Below are positions 2,380 through 14,208 of a stretch of 44,005 nt of DNA, piece after piece. Made by a program: the position numbers and the translations under genes. Source of the DNA: Vectrevirus T205P4. Where the stretch lies: the sequence record OZ035727.1; one strand, written 5' to 3'. The notes under the pieces were generated by a model. That model saw only the letters and a list, made by a program, of their open reading frames with translations. It was not told where the DNA came from and did no database searches. Each line of letters opens with the position of its first letter. The first letter of the stretch is position 1.

Positions 2380-2661
2380 ATGGCTAATGATTATAGTGAT
2401 CAACCTTTAACTGGTCGATATGACCGTAAGCAGATTACACCGACCAGTGAGGCATTAATGCTCCCTGTTGTTACAGAGGAGTCTATTACGAAGAAAGCCA
2501 ATGTTATCAATGATGCAACCAAATCTGGTAAACAGAAAGCAGCAATGGTATGTCGTCCTGTAGGTGGCACTCTTGAGATTGCCATTGCTACTGGTAGCAA
2601 AGAGGATGCAGATTGGTTGTCTGTTAAAATGGACAGCGTTGGTCTTATTACACCGGCTTAA
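2380..2661 (+). CDS. Hypothetical protein, 93 aa, paralog A of a tandem pair
   Basis: AAGGAG RBS; shares a motif skeleton (SGKQK-AMV ... IAIA-GS ... W ... TP) with the next ORF. Confidence 0.6.
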   Translation: MANDYSDQPLTGRYDRKQITPTSEALMLPVVTEESITKKANVINDATKSGKQKAAMVCRPVGGTLEIAIATGSKEDADWLSVKMDSVGLITPA

Positions 2662-2678
2662 TAAAAGGAGAAGATAAT

Positions 2679-2966
2679 ATGTCTAAGTATGGCGATGCAG
2701 GTACGACTACTGGTCAGGTTTTTCGTGTAAAAGCAGTACAAACTATTGCAACTGCAATTCCTATGCCTATCGTGGCAGAAGCTGACCTTAAAAAGAAAGA
2801 TCATCCAATTAATATTGAACACCTATCTGGTAAGCAGAAAGGTGCTATGGTGGTTGTAGATAAAGGAGATAGCCTTTATATTGCTATTGCGCGTGGCTCT
2901 GCACCAACTGACAAGTGGGATGCAACTACTATGGAGGTGACACCTGTCACTCCAGAAGGGGATTAA
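2679..2966 (+). CDS. Hypothetical protein, 95 aa, paralog B of a tandem pair
   Basis: AAAGGAGA RBS; paralogous to 2380..2661. Confidence 0.6.
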   Translation: MSKYGDAGTTTGQVFRVKAVQTIATAIPMPIVAEADLKKKDHPINIEHLSGKQKGAMVVVDKGDSLYIAIARGSAPTDKWDATTMEVTPVTPEGD

Positions 2967-2968
2967 TA

Positions 2969-3313
2969 ATGCTTAACAAATACTTCAAGCGTAAAGAGTT
3001 CGCTTGCCGTTGTGGGTGCGGTACATCCACTGTTGATGCTGAATTACTACAGGTAGTCACAGATGTGCGTGAGCACTTTGGTTCTCCTGTAGTTATCACT
3101 TCGGGGCATCGCTGTGCTAAGCACAATGCTAATGTAGGAGGAGCTAAGAACTCCATGCATCTTACTGGTAAGGCTGCTGACATTAAGGTACGAGGTATCT
3201 TACCTTCTGATGTACATAAGTATCTTACTGATAAGTACCAAGGCAAGTATGGTATTGGTAAGTATACCTCCTTTACTCATATTGATGTACGTAACGGGTG
3301 TGCACGATGGTAG
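2969..3313 (+). CDS. Endolysin, zinc peptidase M15-type (L-alanyl-D-glutamate peptidase-like), about 115 aa
   Basis: Motifs SGHRCxxHN ... GGAxNSxH ... AADI ... H-x-D typical of M15 peptidases; ATG at 2969 with AAGGGGA RBS (the track ORF starts further upstream at 2915). Confidence 0.8.
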   Translation: MLNKYFKRKEFACRCGCGTSTVDAELLQVVTDVREHFGSPVVITSGHRCAKHNANVGGAKNSMHLTGKAADIKVRGILPSDVHKYLTDKYQGKYGIGKYTSFTHIDVRNGCARW

Positions 3314-3887: not shown

Positions 3888-3910
3888 ATTTACTGGACAC
3901 TATAGAAGAG
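3888..3910 (+). promoter_or_regulatory. Phage RNAP promoter P2 (ATTTACTGGACACTATAGAAGAG) driving the tailspike genes
   Basis: Near-perfect consensus copy 80 nt upstream of the tailspike 1 start. Confidence 0.8.
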
Positions 3911-3989
3911 GTAAGATAGCGCCGTTCTTTTGAGCGGCCTATTACTAGCCAATCTTCATAGGGAGGGTTGGAAAGTAATAGGAGATAGC

Positions 3990-5888
3990 ATGGCTAAATT
4001 AACCAAACCTAATACTGAAGGAATCTTGCATAAAGGACAATCTTTGTATGAGTACCTTGATGCGAGAGTTTTAACATCAAAGCCGTTTGGTGCTGTAGGT
4101 GACGCCACTACTGATGATACGGAGGTTATAGCTGCTTCATTAAACTCTCAGAAAGCTGTCACAATCTCAGACGGTGTATTCTCTAGCTCTGGTATTAATA
4201 GTAATTACTGTAACTTAGACGGTAGAGGTAGTGGGGTGCTAAGTCACCGTTCCAGTGCAGGTAACTACTTAGTATTTAACAATCCACGTACAGGTCGCTT
4301 AAGTAATATTACGGTAGAAAGTAATAAGGCGACTGATACAACTCAGGGACAGCAGGTATCTCTTGCTGGTGGAAGTGATGTTACTGTAAGTGACGTTAAC
4401 TTCTCAAACGTTAAAGGTACTGGTTTCAGTTTAATCGCATACCCTAATGATGCGCCACCTGATGGACTTATGATTAAAGGCATTCGAGGTAGCTATTCAG
4501 GCTATGCTACTAATAAGGCAGCCGGATGCGTACTTGCTGACTCCTCAGTTAACTCCCTCATAGATAACGTCATTGCTAAGAACTACCCTCAGTTCGGAGC
4601 AGTAGAGTTGAAAGGTACAGCCAGTTACAACATAGTCAGTAATGTTATAGGGGCAGATTGCCAGCATGTAACTTACAACGGCACCGAAGGGCCAATAGCT
4701 CCTTCTAATAACCTTATCAAGGGGGTGATGGCTAATAACCCTAAGTATGCAGCGGTTGTTGCAGGCAAAGGAAGTACGAACTTAATCTCAGACGTGCTTG
4801 TAGATTACTCAACTTCTGATGCTAGGCAGGCTCATGGTGTTACCGTAGAAGGGTCTGATAACGTCATAAATAATGTGCTTATGTCAGGATGTGATGGTAC
4901 TAACTCTTTAGGACAAGGGCAGACCGCTACAATTGCACGCTTTATAGGTACAGCTAATAACAACTATGCGTCTGTATTTCCTAGCTACAGTGCTACAGGT
5001 GTTATTACTTTCGAATCCGGCTCTACCCGTAACTTCGTAGAGGTAAAGCACCCTGGCAGGAGAAACGACCTTCTCAGTTCTGCTAGTACTATTGACGGTG
5101 CAGCTACTATTGACGGCACTAATAATAGTAACGTAGTACACGCACCTGCATTAGGGCAGTACATAGGTAGTATGTCAGGTAGGTTCGAATGGCGGATTAA
5201 GTCCATGTCACTCCCTTCAGGCGTTCTTACTTCTGCTGATAAGTACAGAATGCTTGGGGATGGTGCTGTATCATTAGCTGTAGGTGGGGGTACTTCTTCT
5301 CAAGTTCGCCTATTTACTTCTGATGGTACTTCTCGGACAGTGGCCCTCACCAACGGTAACGTGCGTCTTTCTACCAGTAGCACAGGCTATTTGCAGTTAG
5401 GTGCTGATGCAATGACCCCAGATAGTACTGGTACATACGCATTAGGTTCCGCCAGTCGAGCATGGTCTGGAGGTTTTACTCAAGCAGCATTCACTGTTAC
5501 ATCAGATGCTCGGTGTAAAACAGAACCTCTTACTATCTCAGATGCCTTACTGGATGCTTGGTCTGAAGTTGACTTTGTGCAGTTTCAGTATTTGGATCGT
5601 GTTGAGGAGAAGGGTGCAGACTCAGCTAGATGGCACTTTGGCATCATCGCTCAGCGAGCTAAGGAGGCTTTCGAACGCCACGGTATAGATGCACATCGCT
5701 ATGGCTTCTTGTGCTTCGACAGTTGGGATGATGTATACGAGGAAGATGCCAATGGCTCTCGTAAACTGATTACACCAGCAGGTTCCCGCTACGGTATTCG
5801 TTACGAGGAAGTGCTGATATTAGAGGCTGCGTTGATGCGGAGGACTATTAAGCGTATGCAGGAAGCACTAGCTTCCCTGCCTAAGTAA
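3990..5888 (+). CDS. Tailspike protein 1 (632 aa): beta-helix depolymerase with C-terminal intramolecular chaperone domain; K5-lyase/endosialidase-type architecture
   Basis: AGGAGA RBS before ATG at 3990 (MAKLTKPNTEG...); repetitive beta-helix-like middle; C-terminal SDARCK...RWHFGIIAQRAKEAFERHGID...YEEVLILEA resembles the autocleaving chaperone domain of endosialidase/K5 lyase tailspikes. Confidence 0.88.
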   Translation: MAKLTKPNTEGILHKGQSLYEYLDARVLTSKPFGAVGDATTDDTEVIAASLNSQKAVTISDGVFSSSGINSNYCNLDGRGSGVLSHRSSAGNYLVFNNPRTGRLSNITVESNKATDTTQGQQVSLAGGSDVTVSDVNFSNVKGTGFSLIAYPNDAPPDGLMIKGIRGSYSGYATNKAAGCVLADSSVNSLIDNVIAKNYPQFGAVELKGTASYNIVSNVIGADCQHVTYNGTEGPIAPSNNLIKGVMANNPKYAAVVAGKGSTNLISDVLVDYSTSDARQAHGVTVEGSDNVINNVLMSGCDGTNSLGQGQTATIARFIGTANNNYASVFPSYSATGVITFESGSTRNFVEVKHPGRRNDLLSSASTIDGAATIDGTNNSNVVHAPALGQYIGSMSGRFEWRIKSMSLPSGVLTSADKYRMLGDGAVSLAVGGGTSSQVRLFTSDGTSRTVALTNGNVRLSTSSTGYLQLGADAMTPDSTGTYALGSASRAWSGGFTQAAFTVTSDARCKTEPLTISDALLDAWSEVDFVQFQYLDRVEEKGADSARWHFGIIAQRAKEAFERHGIDAHRYGFLCFDSWDDVYEEDANGSRKLITPAGSRYGIRYEEVLILEAALMRRTIKRMQEALASLPK

Positions 5889-5895
5889 GCAACAG

Positions 5896-5918
5896 GCAGT
5901 GCGTAAGCACTGCTTTTC
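5896..5918 (+). terminator. Hairpin plus T-tract between the two tailspike genes
   Basis: GCAGTGC-GTAA-GCACTGC followed by TTTTCACGC. Confidence 0.5.
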
Positions 5919-5973
5919 ACGCAACTTTTCTTAAAGGTTATCATGGTGGTAGCCTTTCAGAAAAGGAGGTTAC

Positions 5974-7632
5974 ATGCTACAACGATTAAGTTCTTCACTA
6001 GTGAAGCACAAGAGCAAGCTAATAGGCGCTACCTATAGGCTGCTTGGTGATAAACTTTTAGAGCTAAATAGTGTATCAGATTTTGGTGCAATACCAAATC
6101 TTGAAACAGATAGTACTAATTCCATTCAAGCTGCAATTGATGCGACCCCGTCTGGTGGTACTCTAGGCTTCTATGGTGGGCCTTATAGATTTGGTACTGT
6201 TACAGTGGATAAACCAATTACACTAGTTGGAGATGCAGATTTGCAGTTTGAGTGCATTCGTATCAAGACAAGTAAGTTTCGTAGTTTCTTGACAGGAACA
6301 CTAACTGCTGCGAGATACGACAGTGCATGTCGTGCATTTCAAATCTTAGCCTATGAAGATGGGCAAGATTATGAGGACATCAAGGTACATGGTGCACGTT
6401 TCGAGGGTTTCTTCTATAACACAGACTTCCGAGGCCGCTCTTACGATGCGTCAGAAAGTGATCCTGCTAACAGAGTGGTTCGGGATACCTCTATTATGGG
6501 CTGTACTTCAGTTCAGCCTAAAGATGGTAAAGACAGAGGGCACTTTCAACACGTAGGTGTAACCAATGCCAAATGCATAGGTAACTCAACGTATGGCGGC
6601 AAGAATGCCACTTCTTATAACTTCATTAATGGTAATGGCTCTTTGGTGGTTATGGGTAACTATGACCATGACAATGAATATGGCTCATTAGAGATTGAGA
6701 ATAACAAGATAAGCTATGGTGTGGTTACTGGTAATATCTTCCATAAACAACTATGGATAGATGATACTAGCAACATTAATGTAATAGGTAACACCTGCAC
6801 AGATAGGATTTACATTACTGCACAATCTAACAACTCTGAGAACGTATCAGTAGTGGGAAACAATGTACCACGCATCTACGTCAGTAAGTTTGGTCAAAGC
6901 CCAACAGGTCGTCACCGTAACTTGACCATACGTGGTAATCATATCACTGGCAAGGATGTTCCTAACTGTATATTCTTAGACGATTCTGTGGATTCCGCTT
7001 CTATTGAGGGTAATGATTGTTATGGTGTATCTGGTGTTAGAGGCATAGCCATTACTCGTCATGCAGATGCTAACCATACAGTGCGTCATAATAACTTACA
7101 TGGCACTAACTTGCTCTTTAGTGGTTCGGGTGGCAAAGTTTATAGTTATGACAACTTTGATGTTGGAGTTGATGAATCACCTGTGACAGACAGAACTGAC
7201 GCAGTGCACATTGACAACCTTCTTCGTGTAAATGATGAGTACCTTGATTTGCCAGGAAAGTACCTATACAAATCTAAGTATACAAGAGACATTACACAAG
7301 GAGGCTCCACCACTATTGAGTTACCTATAACCACAAGTGGTACTTTGGCTTTTCGTGGTATTAGTTTATGGGTTCTTATCCGTAACACTTCTACTGGTAA
7401 CTTGTCTTCTTATCGTGTCGATGGAAGACATGCAGTAAGTGGTTCTTCTGTGACTGTTAGTTTTGGAGAGAAGTATGGGGTATTAGGGGTGAATACTGGT
7501 GATGTTACTATTAGTAATGATGCCTCTACGACTAATCTTATTCGTATCAAGGTAAGCAATGAGCATGTAAGTCAGACAATGCAGGTCACAGTTGTACCAG
7601 AGGTAACAAGCAGATTGGGAACTGAAGAGTAA
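5974..7632 (+). CDS. Tailspike protein 2 (552 aa), right-handed beta-helix (pectate-lyase-like) receptor-binding/depolymerase protein
   Basis: AAGGAGG RBS; repeated VxGN/NxxxG beta-helix rungs (VIGNTCTDRIYIT, VVGNNVPRIYVS, IRGNHITGKD); second spike gene directly after spike 1, as in K1-5/SP6-type phages. Confidence 0.85.
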   Translation: MLQRLSSSLVKHKSKLIGATYRLLGDKLLELNSVSDFGAIPNLETDSTNSIQAAIDATPSGGTLGFYGGPYRFGTVTVDKPITLVGDADLQFECIRIKTSKFRSFLTGTLTAARYDSACRAFQILAYEDGQDYEDIKVHGARFEGFFYNTDFRGRSYDASESDPANRVVRDTSIMGCTSVQPKDGKDRGHFQHVGVTNAKCIGNSTYGGKNATSYNFINGNGSLVVMGNYDHDNEYGSLEIENNKISYGVVTGNIFHKQLWIDDTSNINVIGNTCTDRIYITAQSNNSENVSVVGNNVPRIYVSKFGQSPTGRHRNLTIRGNHITGKDVPNCIFLDDSVDSASIEGNDCYGVSGVRGIAITRHADANHTVRHNNLHGTNLLFSGSGGKVYSYDNFDVGVDESPVTDRTDAVHIDNLLRVNDEYLDLPGKYLYKSKYTRDITQGGSTTIELPITTSGTLAFRGISLWVLIRNTSTGNLSSYRVDGRHAVSGSSVTVSFGEKYGVLGVNTGDVTISNDASTTNLIRIKVSNEHVSQTMQVTVVPEVTSRLGTEE

Positions 7633-7781
7633 TGCCATTAATCAAATCAGTTAAGCAAAGTGCTGTACGTCAGAACACAGAAGAACTCATTCAATCAGGA
7701 CGTGACCCTAAGCAAGCTTATGCGATTGCCAAGGATGTACAACGTCGTGCCTTGAAGAAACCTTCTGCATCTTCTGCGTAA
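7632..7781 (+). CDS. Hypothetical small protein, 49 aa
   Basis: TAATG stop/start overlap with tailspike 2; below track cutoff; no recognisable domain. Confidence 0.4.
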   Translation: MPLIKSVKQSAVRQNTEELIQSGRDPKQAYAIAKDVQRRALKKPSASSA

Positions 7782-7852
7782 GCAGGTTAATATCTTAGTA
7801 TAAACAAGGGCAGACCTAGGTTTGCTCTTAGTGTATTTACAATGGAGGTCTT

Positions 7853-7933
7853 ATGTATATACCTATGGAAGCAATAGTAGGTTGCCTATGCTTGTTGATA
7901 GGTTTCGTTATAGGCTTAATAGCAAAGCCTTAG
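7853..7933 (+). CDS. Hypothetical 26-aa hydrophobic micro-protein (MYIPMEAIVGCLCLLIGFVIGLIAKP)
   Basis: GGAGG RBS 5 nt upstream; a single predicted transmembrane helix; last ORF before the terminal non-coding region. Confidence 0.3.
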   Translation: MYIPMEAIVGCLCLLIGFVIGLIAKP

Positions 7934-7987
7934 TCCTGTACAAGGATTAACCAAAGTCAAAATTTTGATATGGTCGTGTGTGAGGTG

Positions 7988-8340
7988 TCTCGCCCTCGCC
8001 CTCGCCGGATTTCCCCCATACGGGTCCGCGCTGCGGTTGGCTTGGGAATTGGGCTGGGCTGGTCCGTCTTCAACCTGCTGCCGCAGGAAGCTCGACGGGT
8101 GGGCGAGGGCTTGCCTTGTACTCGCTTAGTGGTACACAAGGAGAACGCCTAGGAAGCGCTAGGGCACGCCTTAGTATTGGACAAGGTGATTGCCTTAGTT
8201 CAACCGCTTAGGGCTTACACGGGCCGTTTTAGGGCCATTCCTGAGCGTTTGACAGGGTGTGAGGGCGTGGGCTATCTGTTCGTTTCGCTACGCTTCACTC
8301 ACTGCTCCTCACTTCGTTCGTCGCTGCGGTAGCCTGATGT
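7988..8340. other. GC-rich non-coding block, candidate genome terminus / direct terminal repeat
   Basis: Clearly more GC-rich than the rest of the window by eye; begins TCTCGCCCTCGCCCTCGCC and contains TTTCCCCCATACGGG, resembling the T7 left-end motif TTCCCCCATAGGGGG; no credible ORF. Confidence 0.45.
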
Positions 8341-8700
8341 GTACCTTAGGTTATTACTTGATGGATAGCTTAGGTTATAGCTTAGTGGCCTACCTTAGTT
8401 ATAACCTTAGTGCATAGCTTAGTATCAGCTTAGTAGTGTACCTTAGTAAGTCTTAGTGTCTTCTCTTAGTGATTGCACATGCAAGCATGTAAGATGCCAT
8501 TAGGTCGCGGTCGGTAGACCGCTAAAGAAGGAGAATAGTAATAAGATGCAGTAGGAGGAACACCAGAAACCTAGCCAACCTAGCCTATCCTAGCTCTGTA
8601 TCTATTGCTTTTCCTTAGTCTCACACGTTAGACAACCTAGGTTTGTCTTAGTAGTTGCGACATGTATCACATAAATAATCTATCTTAGTGCGATTTAGTG
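8340..8700. repeat. Array of short CTTAGT/CTTAGG motifs (more than 15 copies) in the terminal non-coding region
   Basis: Motif recurs at irregular 10-25 nt spacing (e.g. agcttaggttatagcttagtggcctaccttagttataaccttagtg...); analogous to the CCTAAAG repeats near the T7 left end. Confidence 0.6.
8618..8633. repeat. Degenerate copy of the 16-bp palindrome (GTCTCACACGTTAGAC, 1 mismatch)
   Basis: One substitution relative to the GTCTCACACGTGAGAC family. Confidence 0.4.
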
Positions 8701-8729
8701 TTGACATAGGCAGTTAACAGGTATACATT
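8701..8729 (+). promoter_or_regulatory. Host sigma70-type early promoter (TTGACA-N17-TACATT)
   Basis: Perfect -35 hexamer, 17-bp spacer, 4/6 -10; position equivalent to T7 A1-A3 early promoters. Confidence 0.6.
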
Positions 8730-8881
8730 AGCAATCAGTCGGGAGCGACATTAAATACTCAGGGTGAATGATAGAGAGCGTCCTTAACTATCCGGCCTAG
8801 CTACTGAAGCCGTTAAACAATGTTAGATAGTGGAAGATGGCGCAAGCATAACCTGCCACGATAAACCAAGGTTAGCGCAAT

Positions 8882-8894
8882 GCTCTTTAACAAT
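8882..8894 (+). promoter_or_regulatory. GCTCTTTAACAAT motif, copy 1 (putative RNase III processing site core)
   Basis: Same 13-mer as I recall at the T7 R0.3 RNase III site (ACGCTCTTTAACAATCTGG); lies just upstream of an early gene. Confidence 0.4.
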
Positions 8895-8952
8895 TTGCTT
8901 AGTGTAACCTATGTATGCCGTGGTTAATTACTTATTGAATGAGGAATTAGCT

Positions 8953-9132
8953 ATGACATTAAATAACCGTGAACTATCCGTTCTCTTCACTCTGTTGTGC
9001 TACATGATTCGTAACAACGAATTGCTTACAGATGACGAGTTGGCACTGTATCACCGCTTTCTTAACGAAGGTTGGACCGATACAGTTAATCAATACCGTA
9101 ACATGATAGATGAGTTGAGGGGGGGTAAATAA
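8953..9132 (+). CDS. Hypothetical early protein, about 59 aa
   Basis: GAGGA RBS before ATG at 8953; first gene after the host promoter. Confidence 0.5.
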   Translation: MTLNNRELSVLFTLLCYMIRNNELLTDDELALYHRFLNEGWTDTVNQYRNMIDELRGGK

Positions 9133-9356
9133 TGTATCAACATGAGGTATTCTTTGAATCAGCTAGCGAAGCTATTCGCTTCCGTGATGATATGATGCAA
9201 GCTGGTGTAGGCGTTGATGTGTATCACTATTTGATAGATTACGACACTGAATATCACCGAGTTACCTTAGTATCTGAGTATGACAACCAAGTCATTACTG
9301 AGTATCTAGGCAGTGAAGATTACGATTACGATGAAGTAATCACGACAAATCTCTAA
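9132..9356 (+). CDS. Hypothetical acidic early protein, 74 aa (D/E/Y-rich)
   Basis: GAGGGGGG RBS; stop/start coupled to the previous gene; strongly acidic composition. Confidence 0.55.
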   Translation: MYQHEVFFESASEAIRFRDDMMQAGVGVDVYHYLIDYDTEYHRVTLVSEYDNQVITEYLGSEDYDYDEVITTNL

Positions 9357-9364
9357 ATTAACTG

Positions 9365-9393
9365 TTGACAGCCACGGCATACAAGGTTACATT
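9365..9393 (+). promoter_or_regulatory. Second host sigma70-type early promoter (TTGACA-N17-TACATT)
   Basis: Identical architecture to the promoter at 8701. Confidence 0.6.
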
Positions 9394-9426
9394 AAGCATC
9401 AAGACGGCGACGTCTTTAAACATCCC

Positions 9427-9439
9427 GCTCTTTAACAAT
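9427..9439 (+). promoter_or_regulatory. GCTCTTTAACAAT motif, copy 2 (putative RNase III site), flanked by inverted repeats ATCAAGAC / GTCTTGAT
   Basis: 13-mer identical to copy 1; inverted repeat arms at about 9401-9408 and 9450-9457 could form the long stem. Confidence 0.45.
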
Positions 9440-9485
9440 ACGGTTTGTGTCTTGATAGGCTAACTAACTAACTAAGGTAATTATC

Positions 9486-9596
9486 ATGAAAGGGTTAATT
9501 TGTGTAGAACGTATGGTCAATGGTAAACTTGAAATATTACCACTGGAAAACCAATCTAGCTTCAAAGAGTGGTATGGCTGTTTCTCACTGATTTAA
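9486..9596 (+). CDS. Hypothetical small early protein, 36 aa
   Basis: TAAGGT RBS; small ORF between RNase III-like sites; below track cutoff. Confidence 0.3.
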   Translation: MKGLICVERMVNGKLEILPLENQSSFKEWYGCFSLI

Positions 9597-9638
9597 GGTA
9601 AAGGCTGGCACTAGTCAGCCTATCAAGGCGCAAACCAA

Positions 9639-9651
9639 GCTCTTTAACAAT
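9639..9651 (+). promoter_or_regulatory. GCTCTTTAACAAT motif, copy 3 (putative RNase III site) upstream of ocr
   Basis: Third identical 13-mer (AAGCTCTTTAACAATTTGG). Confidence 0.4.
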
Positions 9652-9745
9652 TTGGATGGTAGCTTCTTAGTCTGGATAGGTTAAACCTAGGGTATTCTTT
9701 TGAGTACCCTATAATGTAACCTAACTAACTAATGAGGATTAAATC

Positions 9746-10075
9746 ATGGAACGCAATGCTAACGCTTACTACAACCTTCTGGCTGCAACTGTTGAAGCAT
9801 TCAACGAGCGTATTCAGTTTGATGAGATTCGCGAAGGTGATGATTACTCTGATGCACTACATGAGGTTGTAGACAGCAATGTTCCAGTTTATTACAGCGA
9901 AATCTTTACAGTGATGGCTGCTGATGGTATTGATGTTGATTTTGAGGATGCTGGTTTGATTCCTGACACGAAGGATGTAACCAAGATTCTACAAGCTCGC
10001 ATCTATGAAGCTCTTTATAATGATGTACCAAATGACAGCGATGTAGTTTGGTGTGAAGGCGAAGAAGAGGAATAA
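9746..10075 (+). CDS. ocr: Ocr-like anti-restriction DNA-mimic protein (T7 gp0.3 homolog), 109 aa
   Basis: [45 protein letters not shown] aligns with T7 Ocr [45 protein letters not shown]; acidic C-terminus; TGAGGA RBS. Confidence 0.88.
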   Translation: [109 protein letters not shown]

Positions 10076-10182
10076 TAAGATGGAAAGGCAATATAACTTC
10101 ATATTTTCAGACGGTGTGACCTTAAAATGTTCCTTGCGATTTGCGCAGATTCGTGAGGAAGTACTAGGAACTACATACAAGC

Positions 10183-10208
10183 TATTTAGATGACACTATA
10201 AGAGAAGA
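10183..10208 (+). promoter_or_regulatory. Variant phage-promoter-like sequence (ATTTAGATGACACTATAAGAGAAG)
   Basis: Matches the consensus upstream half, but the initiating region is ATAAGAG instead of ATAGAAG; may be weak or non-functional. Confidence 0.35.
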
Positions 10209-10269
10209 CTTAACAAGGCGTTGCTACGGTAGCGCCTGATTAAACTTTCACTTACTAGGAGTTGAGATT

Positions 10270-10455
10270 ATGAAAACCTTGATTGGATGCTTCTTGTTGG
10301 CTTCTCTTGCTCTGGCATTTACCGCTAAAGCTGGTTATGACGCTTATAAAGTAGAACAAGCCCAGCAAGACTGGGCCAAAAAGTTCAACTTGTGCAGCAA
10401 GAGCAACACCTACGAGTACTGCAACAAAACACTAAGACACTTATGGAAAGAGTAA
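10270..10455 (+). CDS. Small secreted protein, 61 aa, with signal peptide (MKTLIGCFLLASLALAFTAKA) and Cys pair
   Basis: AGGAG RBS; canonical signal peptide with AxA-like site; mature part about 40 aa. Confidence 0.6.
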   Translation: MKTLIGCFLLASLALAFTAKAGYDAYKVEQAQQDWAKKFNLCSKSNTYEYCNKTLRHLWKE

Positions 10456-10462
10456 CTAGCCT

Positions 10463-10484
10463 ATAGCCCACCTGAGTGGGCTAT
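10463..10484 (+). terminator. Hairpin (ATAGCCCAC-CTGA-GTGGGCTAT) after the secreted-protein gene
   Basis: 9-bp stem with 4-nt loop, followed by GTGATATTTA; weak U-tract. Confidence 0.4.
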
Positions 10485-10519
10485 GTGATATTTACTTACC
10501 ACTATATAAGGTGATTACT

Positions 10520-11404
10520 ATGACTACTGAAAACACCCTCGTGTCTGTCCGTGAAGCTGCAACCGCTGAAATCAAGCAACATTTAGACAATATCGGCACT
10601 TCTTACATCAAAGTAGGGGCTTGTCTGAATGAGTTACGCGGAGACTTTGAAGGTCAAAAAGAGTTTTTAGCCTATGTTGAAGCAGAGTTTGCCATTAAGA
10701 AGGCACAATGTTACAAGCTGATGAGTGTAGCCCGTGTCTTTGAAGGCGATGATCGCTTTAAAGGCGTGGCGATGCGTGTAATGCTGGCGCTTGTTCCTTT
10801 CGCTGATGAAAATATCATCATGGAGAAAGCCGCAGAACTTGCCGCAGCGGGCAAGCTGGACACTAACGCCGTGAACGCCCTGATTGAGCCTAAGAAAGAG
10901 CCAAAGTCTGAGACGGTACAATCCAAGGCTGAGCCTGTAAAACCGCAGGAGAACGCGACTGCGGCCGCAGAATCCCAGGAAACGCAAGCGCCGCAGGAAG
11001 TGCCGCCAGCAAGTGAGTCGGATGACGACAAATCAGCACCGTGGGAAGAGGAAAGCAAGCCGGAAGCGCCAAAGGCCGCGCCACTGGACAACACGGCTAA
11101 CACTGAAAACGCCGCTATGACTGGCCTACTGGCACAAATTAAGGCACTGACTGAGCAATTACAGGCAGCTAACGACCGCATCGCCGCCCTAACCAGTGCA
11201 CGTGAAAGCAAGAAGGCAGCCGCGCCTATGCTTCCCCAATTCAAATCTAAATGTTTCTATGCTCGCTTGGGTTTAAGCGCTGAGGAGGCAACGAAGAAAA
11301 CAGCAGTTAACAAGGCACGCCGCGAACTGGTTAAGCTAGGCTATGGTGAAGGCCATGAAGCATGGGCCTCAATCTCTGAGGCAGTAGAAGAATTAACTAA
11401 GTAA
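10520..11404 (+). CDS. Hypothetical early protein, about 294 aa, with long acidic Pro/Glu/Ala-rich low-complexity linker
   Basis: AAGGTG RBS before ATG at 10520; sits where T7 has the gene 0.7 kinase, immediately upstream of the RNAP gene, but I see no kinase motifs. Confidence 0.7.
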   Translation: MTTENTLVSVREAATAEIKQHLDNIGTSYIKVGACLNELRGDFEGQKEFLAYVEAEFAIKKAQCYKLMSVARVFEGDDRFKGVAMRVMLALVPFADENIIMEKAAELAAAGKLDTNAVNALIEPKKEPKSETVQSKAEPVKPQENATAAAESQETQAPQEVPPASESDDDKSAPWEEESKPEAPKAAPLDNTANTENAAMTGLLAQIKALTEQLQAANDRIAALTSARESKKAAAPMLPQFKSKCFYARLGLSAEEATKKTAVNKARRELVKLGYGEGHEAWASISEAVEELTK

Positions 11405-11467
11405 CCTTATCGGTGGCATCTTCTTAGGTGTCACCTATTAAGGTTTCTTTCACTAGGAGTAAACAAG

Positions 11468-14095
11468 ATGCAAGACTTACACGCTATTCAACTTCAACTT
11501 GAAGAAGAAATGTTTAACGGCGGTATCCGTCGCTTTGAAGCGGACCAACAACGCCAGATTGCATCCGGTAATGAATCAGACACGGCATGGAATCGCCGCT
11601 TATTGTCTGAGTTAATCGCGCCAATGGCTGAAGGCATTCAGGCATACAAGGAAGAGTATGAAGGTAAAAGAGGCCGTGCACCGCGTGCATTGGCTTTCAT
11701 TAACTGCGTTGAAAACGAAGTGGCAGCATATATCACGATGAAAATCGTTATGGACATGCTGAATACAGACGTTACCTTACAAGCCATCGCTATGAATGTA
11801 GCAGACCGCATCGAGGACCAAGTACGTTTTAGCAAGCTGGAAGGTCACGCCGCCAAATACTTTGAGAAAGTTAAGAAGTCACTTAAGGCAAGTAAGACTA
11901 AATCATATCGCCATGCGCACAACGTAGCGGTCGTGGCTGAGAAGTCTGTATCTGACCGTGACGCGGACTTTTCCCGCTGGGAGGCATGGCCCAAAGATAC
12001 CTTGTTGCAAATAGGTATGACACTGCTAGAAATCTTGGAGAATAGCGTATTCTTTAACGGGCAACCTGTTTTCCTCCGCACCTTGCGCACTAATGGCGGC
12101 AAACACGGTGTTTACTACTTACAGACCAGCGAACACGTTGGCGAGTGGATAACTGCATTTAAGGAACATGTAGCGCAGCTTAGTCCTGCCTATGCGCCTT
12201 GCGTCATCCCTCCGCGTCCGTGGGTGTCGCCTTTTAATGGTGGATTCCACACTGAGAAGGTAGCAAGTCGTATCCGTCTTGTTAAAGGCAACCGCGAGCA
12301 CGTACGCAAGCTCACTAAGAAGCAAATGCCAGCCGTTTACAAGGCTGTTAATGCTTTGCAGGCAACTAAATGGCAGGTTAACAAGGAAGTATTGCAGGTT
12401 GTTGAAGATGTAATTCGTCTCGACCTTGGTTATGGTGTGCCTTCCTTTAAGCCGCTTATCGACCGCGAGAACAAGCCAGCTAATCCAGTGCCGTTAGAGT
12501 TCCAGCACCTGCGAGGCCGTGAACTTAAAGAGATGCTAACGCCGGAACAATGGCAAGCCTTCATCAACTGGAAAGGCGAATGTACCAAGCTGTATACCGC
12601 TGAAACTAAGCGCGGCAGCAAGTCGGCGGCAACCGTTCGCATGGTCGGGCAGGCCCGTAAATACAGCCAGTTTGACGCAATATACTTCGTGTATGCACTG
12701 GATAGCCGTTCGCGCGTTTATGCGCAATCTAGCACGCTCTCGCCGCAATCAAACGACCTAGGCAAGGCGTTACTGCGTTTCACCGAAGGGCAGCCTCTAA
12801 ATAGCTCTGAGGCGCTTAAGTGGTTTTTGGTGAACGGGGCGAATAACTGGGGTTGGGATAAGAAAACCTTTAACGTGCGCACCGCTAACGTGCTGGATGG
12901 TGAATTCCAAGACATGTGCCGCGACATTGCAGCCGACCCGCTGACCTTCACTCAATGGGTGAATGCAGATTCACCTTATGGCTTTCTTGCGTGGTGCTTT
13001 GAATACGCGCGTTATCTGGATGCACTGGATGAAGGAACACAAGATAAATTCATGACGCATTTACCAGTACATCAAGATGGTAGTTGTTCTGGTATCCAGC
13101 ACTATAGCGCGATGTTACGCGATGAAGTAGGTGCGAAAGCGGTAAACCTCAAGCCGTCAGACGAGCCGCAAGATATTTATGGGGCCGTTGCGCAAGTAGT
13201 TATCCAGAAAAACTATGCTTACATGAATGCAGATGATGCAGAAACTTTCACATCTGGAAGCGTAACACTTACAGGTGCAGAACTGCGTAGCATGGCTGGC
13301 GCGTGGGATATGATAGGTATCACTCGCGGCTTAACCAAAAAGCCGGTAATGACCTTGCCTTACGGCTCCACCCGCTTAACCTGCCGTGAGTCAGTGATTG
13401 ATTATATCGTTGATTTGGAAGAAAAAGAGGCACAACGAGCTATTGCAGAAGGGCGGACGGCGAATCCTGTTCACCCTTTTGATAATGACCGCAAAGATTA
13501 CCTGACACCGGGCGCAGCTTACAACTATATGACTGCTTTAATTTGGCCTTCTATCTCTGAGGTTGTTAAAGCTCCTATAGTGGCGATGAAAATGATTCGC
13601 CAGCTTGCACGATTCGCAGCTAAAAGAAACGAAGGGCTAGAGTACACCTTACCTACTGGTTTCATCTTGCAACAAAAGATAATGGCTACCGACATGCTAC
13701 GCGTATCCACTTGCTTGATGGGTGAAATCAAGATGAGTCTACAGATTGAGACTGATGTAGTGGATGAAACGGCAATGATGGGCGCTGCCGCTCCTAACTT
13801 TGTTCACGGGCATGATGCTAGTCATCTCATCCTGACTGTATGTGACCTCGTTGACAAGGGCATTACATCTATCGCAGTCATCCATGATTCCTTTGGTACT
13901 CATGCAGGCCGTACAGCAGACCTGCGGGATAGCTTAAGGGCAGAAATGGTGAAGATGTATCAAGGTCGTAATGCTCTGCAAAGCCTGTTAGATGAGCATG
14001 AGGAGCGCTGGTTAGTAGACACCGGAATCCAAGTGCCAGAGCAAGGGGAGTTTGACCTTAACGAGATATTAGTATCTGACTATTGCTTTGCATAA
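11468..14095 (+). CDS. Single-subunit DNA-dependent RNA polymerase, SP6-type, 875 aa
   Basis: N-terminus [32 protein letters not shown]... and C-terminus ...[10 protein letters not shown]...DYCFA match my recollection of SP6 RNAP; conserved catalytic region [18 protein letters not shown]. Confidence 0.97.
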
Positions 14096-14103
14096 TATTG
14101 ATA

Positions 14104-14133
14104 GGCCATTCCTTCGGGAGTGGCCTTTTCTTT
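14104..14133 (+). terminator. Terminator hairpin after the RNAP gene (GGCCATTCC-TTCG-GGAGTGGCC then TTTTCTTT)
   Basis: 9-bp stem with UUCG tetraloop and a U-tract. Confidence 0.7.
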
Positions 14134-14167
14134 ACCTGATACCTGTAACATTTCATTAACATAAACT

Positions 14168-14183
14168 GTCTCACACGTGAGAC
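14168..14183. repeat. 16-bp palindrome GTCTCACACGTGAGAC, copy 1
   Basis: Perfect inverted repeat, 2 nt upstream of promoter P3. Confidence 0.8.
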
Positions 14184-14184
14184 T

Positions 14185-14208
14185 CATTTACCGGACACTA
14201 TAGGAGAA
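14185..14208 (+). promoter_or_regulatory. Phage RNAP promoter P3 (CATTTACCGGACACTATAGGAGAA)
   Basis: Consensus match; first of two tandem promoters between RNAP and primase genes. Confidence 0.7.

Follow-up and report, generated by a model that had tools for sequence, protein, structure and literature searches.

Two probable host-type early promoters of Vectrevirus T205P4 in a boxA and long-range helix layout resembling that of an rRNA operon

The DNA considered here is a 44,005-nucleotide stretch of Vectrevirus T205P4 (sequence record OZ035727.1), referred to at its full length as the window. Its early region carries two candidate promoters for the host RNA polymerase (RNAP), P1 and P2, set among three boxA elements and two pairs of distant complementary arms, all on the + strand. 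P1, the first early promoter of sigma-70 type, occupies 8701-8729 (-35 hexamer at 8701-8706, -10 hexamer TACATT at 8724-8729, predicted start A8737), and P2, the second, occupies 9365-9393 (-35 at 9365-9370, -10 TACATT at 9388-9393, predicted start A9401), the two being separated by 664 bp. The boxA sequence GCTCTTTAACAAT is found at 8882-8894 (boxA1, 153 nt past the P1 -10), at 9427-9439 (boxA2, 34 nt past the P2 -10) and at 9639-9651 (boxA3, the last one ahead of the gene ocr). A small hairpin, AAGACGgcgaCGTCTT, at 9401-9416 forms the 5' end of the predicted P2 transcript, 10 nt ahead of boxA2, and is missing from short variants in some relatives. The complementary arms would form long-range RNA helices enclosing small open reading frames (ORFs). 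Helix A pairs 8896-8925, which begins 1-2 nt past boxA1, with 9370-9398 and loops out gp1 and gp2, two small early ORFs (8953-9132 and 9132-9356) of PHROG families 9275 and 6403, function unknown. Helix B pairs 9442-9461, a 20-bp core that begins 2 nt past boxA2 and continues in weaker pairing to 9474, with 9617-9636, which ends 2 nt ahead of boxA3; it loops out a 36-amino-acid ORF (9486-9596). The first sizeable early gene that P1 and P2 would serve is ocr (9746-10075), encoding an anti-restriction DNA mimic like the product of T7 gene 0.3.

The region around P1 and P2 has counterparts of 92-98% identity in the left-end early regions of K1-5, K1E and numerous further Vectrevirus genomes; the Vectrevirus lineage belongs to Autographiviridae, Molineuxvirinae, and the window represents a K1-5/K1E-like member of the T7 supergroup. 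In the linear record of K1-5 the P2 orthologue begins at nt 1193, and in K1E the P1 orthologue begins at nt 715, from which it follows that the window is a circularly permuted genome with its left end near 8040-8060. The distance to this end is about 0.65 kb for P1 and about 1.3 kb for P2. Downstream of P2 come small ORFs, ocr, further small genes and the phage RNAP gene (11468-14095). The window has nine consensus phage promoters (ATTTACTGGACACTATAGAAG) on its + strand, none of them within 3895-14193; P1 and P2 thus stand ahead of ocr and the RNAP gene, within 5.4 kb devoid of such promoters, and expression of this stretch must start with the host polymerase, as in T7. The GenBank records of K1-5, K1E and SP6 annotate coding sequences alone in this region, without promoters, boxA elements or stems.

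The form TTGACA-N17-TACATT, which a sequence-only reading of this DNA had reported at both positions with a perfect -35, a 17-bp spacer and the same -10, is present as claimed. A search of both strands over all 44,005 bp gives these two matches and no other, and 100 dinucleotide-preserving shuffles give none. When at least 10/12 hexamer positions together with A2 and T6 of the -10 were demanded, a scan of the whole window returned three + strand sites, namely P1, P2 (10/12 each) and a site at 2232 that overlaps a phage-polymerase promoter, and a consensus scanner applied to 7-12 kb found P1 and P2 as the sole good promoter-like sites on the + strand. P1, P2 and the annotated T7 promoters A1, A2 and A3 align base for base in one register. 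The annotated T7 starts each lie 8 nt past the last -10 base, and the same spacing yields the predicted starts A8737 (tacatt agcaatc A) and A9401 (tacatt aagcatc A).

Conservation differs between the two promoters. P2 recurs nearly base for base in Vectrevirus phages of Escherichia coli, Citrobacter and Raoultella, in Zindervirus (SP6, Kenya-K31, GRNsp03) and in Klebsiella phage cp4. Of 22 distinct relatives, 21 retain its TTGACA, with a TAnnnT-like hexamer 17-18 bp away, and a conserved AT-rich segment, TAAATTAAC, stands just ahead of the -35; the -10 has changed in Proteus phage PM93, to TACACT, and in Lelliottia phage phD2B, to GATATT, with A2 and T6 kept in each. P1 is found in relatives always after ...CTTAGTG and always with TTGACA, in at least four alleles with different spacers: the allele of the window (N17, TACATT) is common to K1E, vB_EcoP_C and LL11, SP6 and VEc3 combine a different spacer with TACATT, K1-5 has N17 with TACTAT, and another allele has N16 with TATTAT. 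The position at the left end, the register shared with T7 A1-A3, the boxA elements downstream and the conservation of P2 in 21/22 relatives bear out, at the level of sequence, the earlier assignment of these sites to host sigma-70: it is very probable that P1 and P2 serve a K1-5/K1E-like phage as its early promoters for the host polymerase, as counterparts of T7 A1-A3. In themselves they are ordinary, being orthologues of the early promoters of K1-5, K1E and SP6.

What surrounds them is less so. The three boxA elements match perfectly the gamma-proteobacterial consensus GYTCTTTAANA (PMC5725501). The + strand of the window holds three such matches, against a chance expectation of about 0.4, and the - strand holds none. 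T7 has a single boxA, at nt 813, downstream of A3. It is a genetically defined antitermination element, and mutations in it, like down-mutations of A3, make gp2 dispensable (PMC3709561, citing Savalia et al. 2010). At least one boxA of this kind follows the early promoters in nearly all T7-family loci compared, and boxA1 and boxA2 lie downstream of host-type promoters in the same arrangement as in T7. By consensus and position, GCTCTTTAACAAT is an rrn-type boxA, that is, of the kind found in ribosomal RNA (rRNA) operons, with binding of NusB/NusE predicted.

The sequence directly past boxA1 and past boxA2 is, in turn, the beginning of a helix. A repeat finder returned the arms of helix A as an inverted repeat of 8896-8923 versus 9372-9398, in two blocks of 93% and 100% with one bulged base between them, and those of helix B as 9442-9466 versus 9612-9636, 88% complementary. 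The calculated RNA duplex energies are -48.1 kcal/mol for helix A and -40.7 kcal/mol for helix B, as against about -26 kcal/mol for shuffled targets, and both duplexes, of 29 bp plus one bulge and of a 20-bp core, respectively, flank their payload over about 20 bp or more. In a scan of 58 loci, every boxA that has another boxA downstream (46/46) has a helix of -35 kcal/mol or better, with a mean of -43.5 kcal/mol, while shuffled targets average -23.4 and do not go below -30.0 kcal/mol; among last boxA elements, 50/55 are at background energy. The 5' arm begins 1-5 nt past the 11-nt boxA core in 46/46. The distance from the 3' arm to the next boxA is 1-3 nt in 20/46 and 12-29 nt in 24/46, the latter including the promoter-bearing type, and the loops measure 130-830 nt and hold one or two small ORFs. 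SP6 carries both helix types and has a 30-bp duplex without a bulge. For the sequence after boxA3, neither the window (-26.1 kcal/mol) nor the relatives gave a long-range partner above background.

Compensatory change supports both pairings. Helix A was compared over 22 distinct sequences: pairing holds in 96.4% of cells, and 18 of 31 pairs have changed on both sides; none of 500 shuffles reaches any of five measures, and registers slid out of place are only 22-41% paired. In the SP6 group, for example, a U-A pair has become A-U (GTATGCC/GGCATAC to GTAAGCC/GGCTTAC), and where PM93 and phD2B vary in the -10, the 5' arm has changed to match. For helix B, over 20 sequences, pairing holds in 97.2% of cells, and seven pairs have changed on both sides; no shuffle out of 500 attains its percentage paired, cell count or covariation score, two counts of pairs and types are reached by 6/500 and 5/500, and slid registers give 25-43%. 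Rows misregistered by MAFFT (L034b, L035a, L035b, phD2B and PM93 in alignment A1; L007 and MR4_2 in alignment A2) lower these pairing counts. Among the non-Watson-Crick cells of correctly registered rows, 60 are G.U and 7 are A.C on the + strand. Such an excess of G.U points to selection on the rightward transcript and is not expected of a palindrome at the DNA level.

Helix A and P2 occupy the same DNA. The 3' arm spans the last base of the -35, the entire P2 spacer, the -10 and the next 5 nt, and stops 2 nt short of the predicted P2 start; the TTGACA lies outside the helix apart from its last base. One helix-A-like stem, L035a, has neither the promoter nor TTGACA and still pairs perfectly well. 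Since TTGACA is kept outside the helix and the stem of L035a pairs without it, P2 is a separate feature superimposed on the arm, and the near invariance of its spacer can be attributed to a double reading, as promoter DNA and as RNA helix. With the helix ending just ahead of the P2 start, P2 transcripts would lack both arms and lead straight into the small hairpin and boxA2, and P1 transcripts cut by RNase III would begin a few nucleotides upstream of the start of P2 transcripts.

Perfect or near-perfect duplexes of 20-30 bp are generic substrates of E. coli RNase III, and the 16S processing stem of the rRNA operon rrnB is a substrate of this enzyme. When E. coli rrnB was passed through the same scan as a positive control, the 5' arm of its 16S stem was found 1 nt past the leader boxA (-59.6 kcal/mol) and the partner of this arm just past the 16S 3' end. 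The phage region is like an rrn operon in that the boxA core fits the same consensus, boxA is followed at 1-2 nt by one arm of a helix exceeding 20 bp, whose partner arm lies beyond the payload, a further boxA follows downstream, and the order of hairpin and then boxA in the P2 leader is that of the rrn leader. It differs in that the payload consists of one or two small protein-coding ORFs rather than 16S rRNA, a promoter is embedded in the 3' arm of the phage helix, and the arm sequences are unrelated to those of rrn. For rRNA operons it has been proposed that boxA bound by NusB/NusE stays on the elongating RNAP through SuhB, NusA and NusG (PMC4807359; PMC8632103), and that the tethered boxA thereby delivers the 16S 5' arm to its distant partner for RNase III (PMC4807359; PMC8632103).

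The explanation that best covers the whole, and one we hold to be likely, is that E. coli sigma-70 early promoters operate here within an rrn-like layout of boxA elements and helices, with loading of Nus factors and processing by RNase III. Host RNAP would initiate near A8737 and A9401, and boxA in each transcript would load NusB/NusE and other Nus factors, by analogy with T7 and rrn operons, allowing fast, Rho-resistant transcription of the small ORFs, ocr and the phage RNAP gene. The 5' arm of a helix, right after boxA1 or boxA2, would meet its 3' arm past the next block of small ORFs and before the next boxA, and host RNase III would most likely cut the helices, freeing gp1-gp2 and the 36-amino-acid ORF as separate mRNAs with paired ends. 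The boxA after each 3' arm could then reload the Nus complex once the earlier boxA has been cut off. Cutting by RNase III is inferred from three observations, namely the generic suitability of 20-30 bp duplexes, the 30-bp unbulged duplex of SP6 and the layout resembling that of the 16S stem.

Several points weigh against this explanation. The sequences compared are phylogenetically related, so that fewer independent events lie behind the pairing than counts of covarying cells suggest; a chance or purely phylogenetic origin of the pairing is nevertheless very unlikely in view of the slid-register controls and of the many kinds of pair seen. Folds of the P1 and P2 leaders as single sequences are no better than those of shuffles, as is to be expected where pairing is long-range. 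In rrnB the second boxA lies 274 nt past the 16S 3' arm, as against 1-29 nt in the phages, and given this spacing the re-arming logic attributed to boxA is an extrapolation by analogy. The P1 and P2 starts, the Nus loading and the RNase III cuts are, moreover, all deduced from sequence, and the consensus of T7-type RNase III sites is absent from helices A and B. The last point favours the main rival explanation, according to which the helices are real RNA structures that act without RNase III, by stabilising mRNA ends, excluding Rho or insulating translation units. This we consider fairly unlikely, because duplexes of 20-30 bp, in SP6 as many as 30 bp without a bulge, would be open to RNase III in any case, and because the layout copies that of a stem which the enzyme processes. 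It is more doubtful still that the inverted repeats act as DNA, as the ends of mobile or recombining ORF cassettes. The frame of helix B does surround unrelated ORFs in different phages and subfamilies (K30, MR4, PhiM1, Peggy), and related phages do differ by entire boxA-to-boxA units, but symmetry of the DNA would not give the excess of G.U over A.C on the transcribed strand, the arms always lie on the early-transcribed strand directly past boxA, and exchange of cassettes at the repeats is compatible with a function in RNA, of which it is probably a by-product.

Other alternatives concern the promoters. The suggestion that P1 and P2 are copies of one duplicated module, which would account for their identical hexamers and spacing, holds at most in part. 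The 42 nt downstream of the -10 are indeed alike (score 5 against a shuffle mean of -7.6, reached by 1/1000 shuffles), and both leaders open with a small hairpin followed by TTAAA. The spacers, however, agree at 6/17 positions, and neither they nor the 40 nt upstream rise above chance, their scores being reached by 237/1000 and 459/1000 shuffles. Separate P1 and P2 orthologues in many other phages, with the same P2 joined to a P1 of the TACTAT or the N16-TATTAT kind, speak against recent duplication. A match between the two -10 hexamers is not required by design, since K1-5 combines a TACTAT P1 with an identical P2; TACATT is the commonest -10 among 97 promoter-like sites (35/97), and at P2 it is additionally constrained by base pairing in helix A. 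The shared form thus reflects a subfamily-wide preference together with the pairing constraints at P2, not a recent duplication. Judged from the sequences, any relation between P1 and P2 is at most old and partial and concerns the -10 and the initially transcribed segment of this P1 allele, so that duplication as such is a clearly unlikely account. Conversely, P2 might be no promoter at all, its hexamers being preserved only because the 3' arm of helix A is: pairing with the 5' arm takes in the spacer, the -10 and the 5 nt past it, all of which covary with that arm, and this alone would be enough to conserve them. We find this improbable, as TTGACA lies outside the helix but for its last base and is yet found in 21/22 relatives at 17-18 bp from a TAnnnT-like hexamer, the stem of L035a pairs without it, TAAATTAAC is conserved before the -35, and the register equals that of the mapped T7 promoters. 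Least credible is a weak third host promoter for ocr at the TATAAT of 9710-9715, which had been put forward as a minor third start with a poor -35. The hexamer is a perfect -10, 30 nt upstream of the ocr start codon, and the poor -35 is confirmed, the hexamers 16-18 bp upstream being CCTAGG, CTAGGG and TAGGGT; no TG of an extended -10 was found at this site. There is thus no usable -35, and the hexamer is not conserved, relatives having TAGAAT, TAGAAG, TAGATG or TTAGTG in its place. It belongs, moreover, to the 3' strand of a hairpin whose stems are conserved or compensated, so that a role as a third start is not supported and may be regarded as very improbable.

That hairpin, a two-tier local structure at 9663-9737 (+) in the ocr leader, lies between boxA3 and the ocr ribosome-binding site and has a conserved core, GGATAGGTT...AACCTAAC, at 9674-9725. 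Its fold z-scores are -4.35 and -4.41; among relatives the outer stem GGATAGGTT/AACCTAAC does not vary, and the inner one exists in at least three compensating versions. When leaders are aligned from boxA to the ATG, it matches the R0.3 hairpin of T7, with the TATAAT opposite CCCUUUA|UGAU, the R0.3 cleavage region (coordinate as reportedly mapped by Dunn and Studier 1983). The resemblance to R0.3, in position and partly in sequence, is confined to this hairpin and does not extend to helices A and B. The TATAAT is thus unlikely to be a promoter and more plausibly belongs to a hairpin of the R0.3 kind that serves processing or stabilisation, and the alignment suggests a conserved site of either kind upstream of ocr across subfamilies.

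The explanation by promoters, boxA elements, Nus loading and RNase III can be set beside better-known systems. Like this phage, T7 has strong sigma-70 promoters not more than about 1.3 kb from the left end, with a TTGACx -35 and spacers of 17-18 bp, an rrn-type boxA downstream, and a hairpin between the last boxA and ocr/0.3. In T7, however, the three promoters form a cluster, boxA is single and the RNase III hairpins are local, with ..CAAGG..GUGGCCUUUA|UGAUU, whereas the present phage has two promoters, three boxA elements and two long-range helices that enclose ORFs. For the T7 sites the cleavage coordinates used are 890, 1468, 3138, 5887 and 6448, as reportedly mapped by Dunn and Studier 1983; all five fall at one motif position in the T7 sequence, which supports them. 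A candidate conserved part of T7-type RNase III sites, CTCTTTAACAAT, was rejected, the five T7 sites sharing ..GGCCUUUA|UGAUU instead; CTCTTTAACAAT proved to be boxA. K1-5, K1E and SP6 have orthologous regions: P2 of K1-5 is identical, with 98% identity from boxA1 on, and K1E has the same P1 allele. Across these phages there is variation in the P1 allele, in how many cassettes are present and in what they contain. With the nut sites of lambda there is in common that boxA RNA recruits NusB/NusE to the host RNAP, but the lambda boxA is off the rrn consensus and requires boxB and the N protein (PMC8632103 for the contrast of rrn and lambda). An N-like protein or a nut-type boxB is not evident in the window, where the order is hairpin and then boxA instead.

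The unit around helix B recurs in other phages as what may be called a type-B frame: boxA, 5' arm, ACTAACTAA..AAGGT, ORF, GCTGGCACTAGCCAGC hairpin, 3' arm and boxA. Such frames hold unrelated small proteins in K1E, LL11 and K30 (gp2.8), SP6 (gp0.2), phD2B, MR4, PhiM1 and Peggy. Their carriers span several subfamilies, and related phages differ by whole boxA-to-boxA units. When IMG/VR was scanned for the two patterns, the type-B frame turned up in 25 contigs and the type-A frame in 22, almost all of them of Autographiviridae size (39-46 kb) or shorter fragments. Three matches, L068, L082 and L084 (contigs of 78 and 135 kb and a 4.8-kb fragment), have no partner arm and were set aside as chance matches in coding sequence. 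The presence of type-B cassettes in other subfamilies and genera indicates, as far as the sequences go, horizontal movement of whole boxA-to-boxA units, and the repeated frame probably serves also as homology for the exchange of early genes.

Individual cassettes offer further observations. Phage K30 (Przondovirus) has at 668-931 a complete type-B cassette with the gp2.8 of K1E, between its promoter and ocr, and Pseudomonas phage MR4 has two type-B cassettes in tandem at 2501-3089. In the window the 36-amino-acid ORF, which fills the loop of helix B and has a good ribosome-binding site (TAAGGTAATTATCATG), has no match among PHROG families and is unannotated in K1-5 and VEc3. A small conserved hairpin at 9602-9621 (GCTGGCACTAGYCAGC) lies immediately 5' of the 3' arm of helix B and overlaps it; it is found in nearly all type-B cassettes across subfamilies and may be a 3' stabiliser or an alternative pairing.

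It is tempting to go one step further and to suppose that the early region of SP6/K1-5-like phages, together with single cassettes in other subfamilies of Autographiviridae, imitates an rRNA operon in protein-coding form, a view we offer tentatively and to which we would give slightly less than even weight. In such an imitation, Nus-modified host polymerase would deliver each helix to RNase III, and transcription would be re-armed after each cut by a new boxA or, alternatively, by a promoter built into the helix arm and then a boxA; the shared frame would be the junction at which unrelated early genes swap between phages. In searchable full text combining boxA with K1-5 or Autographiviridae, a search whose range did not include the original K1-5 and SP6 genome papers, this layout is not described, and an SP6-like genome paper gives BPROM promoter counts only; the novelty of the rrn-like arrangement of boxA and helices is accordingly claimed tentatively.

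Cassettes of this kind would provide a clean natural system for the hand-over of an arm by boxA and Nus factors, which has so far been argued mainly for 16S rRNA. They are suited to such study by their short, non-essential loops and by the many compensatory variants that relatives supply. There are also practical implications: in these therapeutic phages, changes engineered into the promoter would interfere with mRNA processing, and only the -35 could be altered while leaving the helix intact. Finally, the portable frame of boxA, arm, ribosome-binding site, ORF, arm and boxA would be a means by which early genes, probably with anti-host or anti-defence functions, are exchanged among T7-family phages.

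Some minor features of the region remain to be mentioned. A scan of 7600-11600 against Rfam (E<=1) gave one chance microRNA match and nothing else. In K1E the last boxA, at nt 2238, reads GCTCTTTTAACAAT and is off consensus by one extra T. Between the terminal-repeat region and P1 the hexamer CTTAGT occurs 12 times in 8190-8700, where 0.25 copies would be expected, and includes an array with a period of about 12/24 nt at 8342-8470 that recalls the short repeats beside the terminal repeat of T7. Further downstream, upstream of gene 5, the segment 10187-10207 (TAGATGACACTATAAGAGAAG) resembles a degenerate phage promoter, and after gene 5 a 10-bp GC-containing hairpin, TATAGCCCACctgaGTGGGCTATG, lies at 10462-10485.

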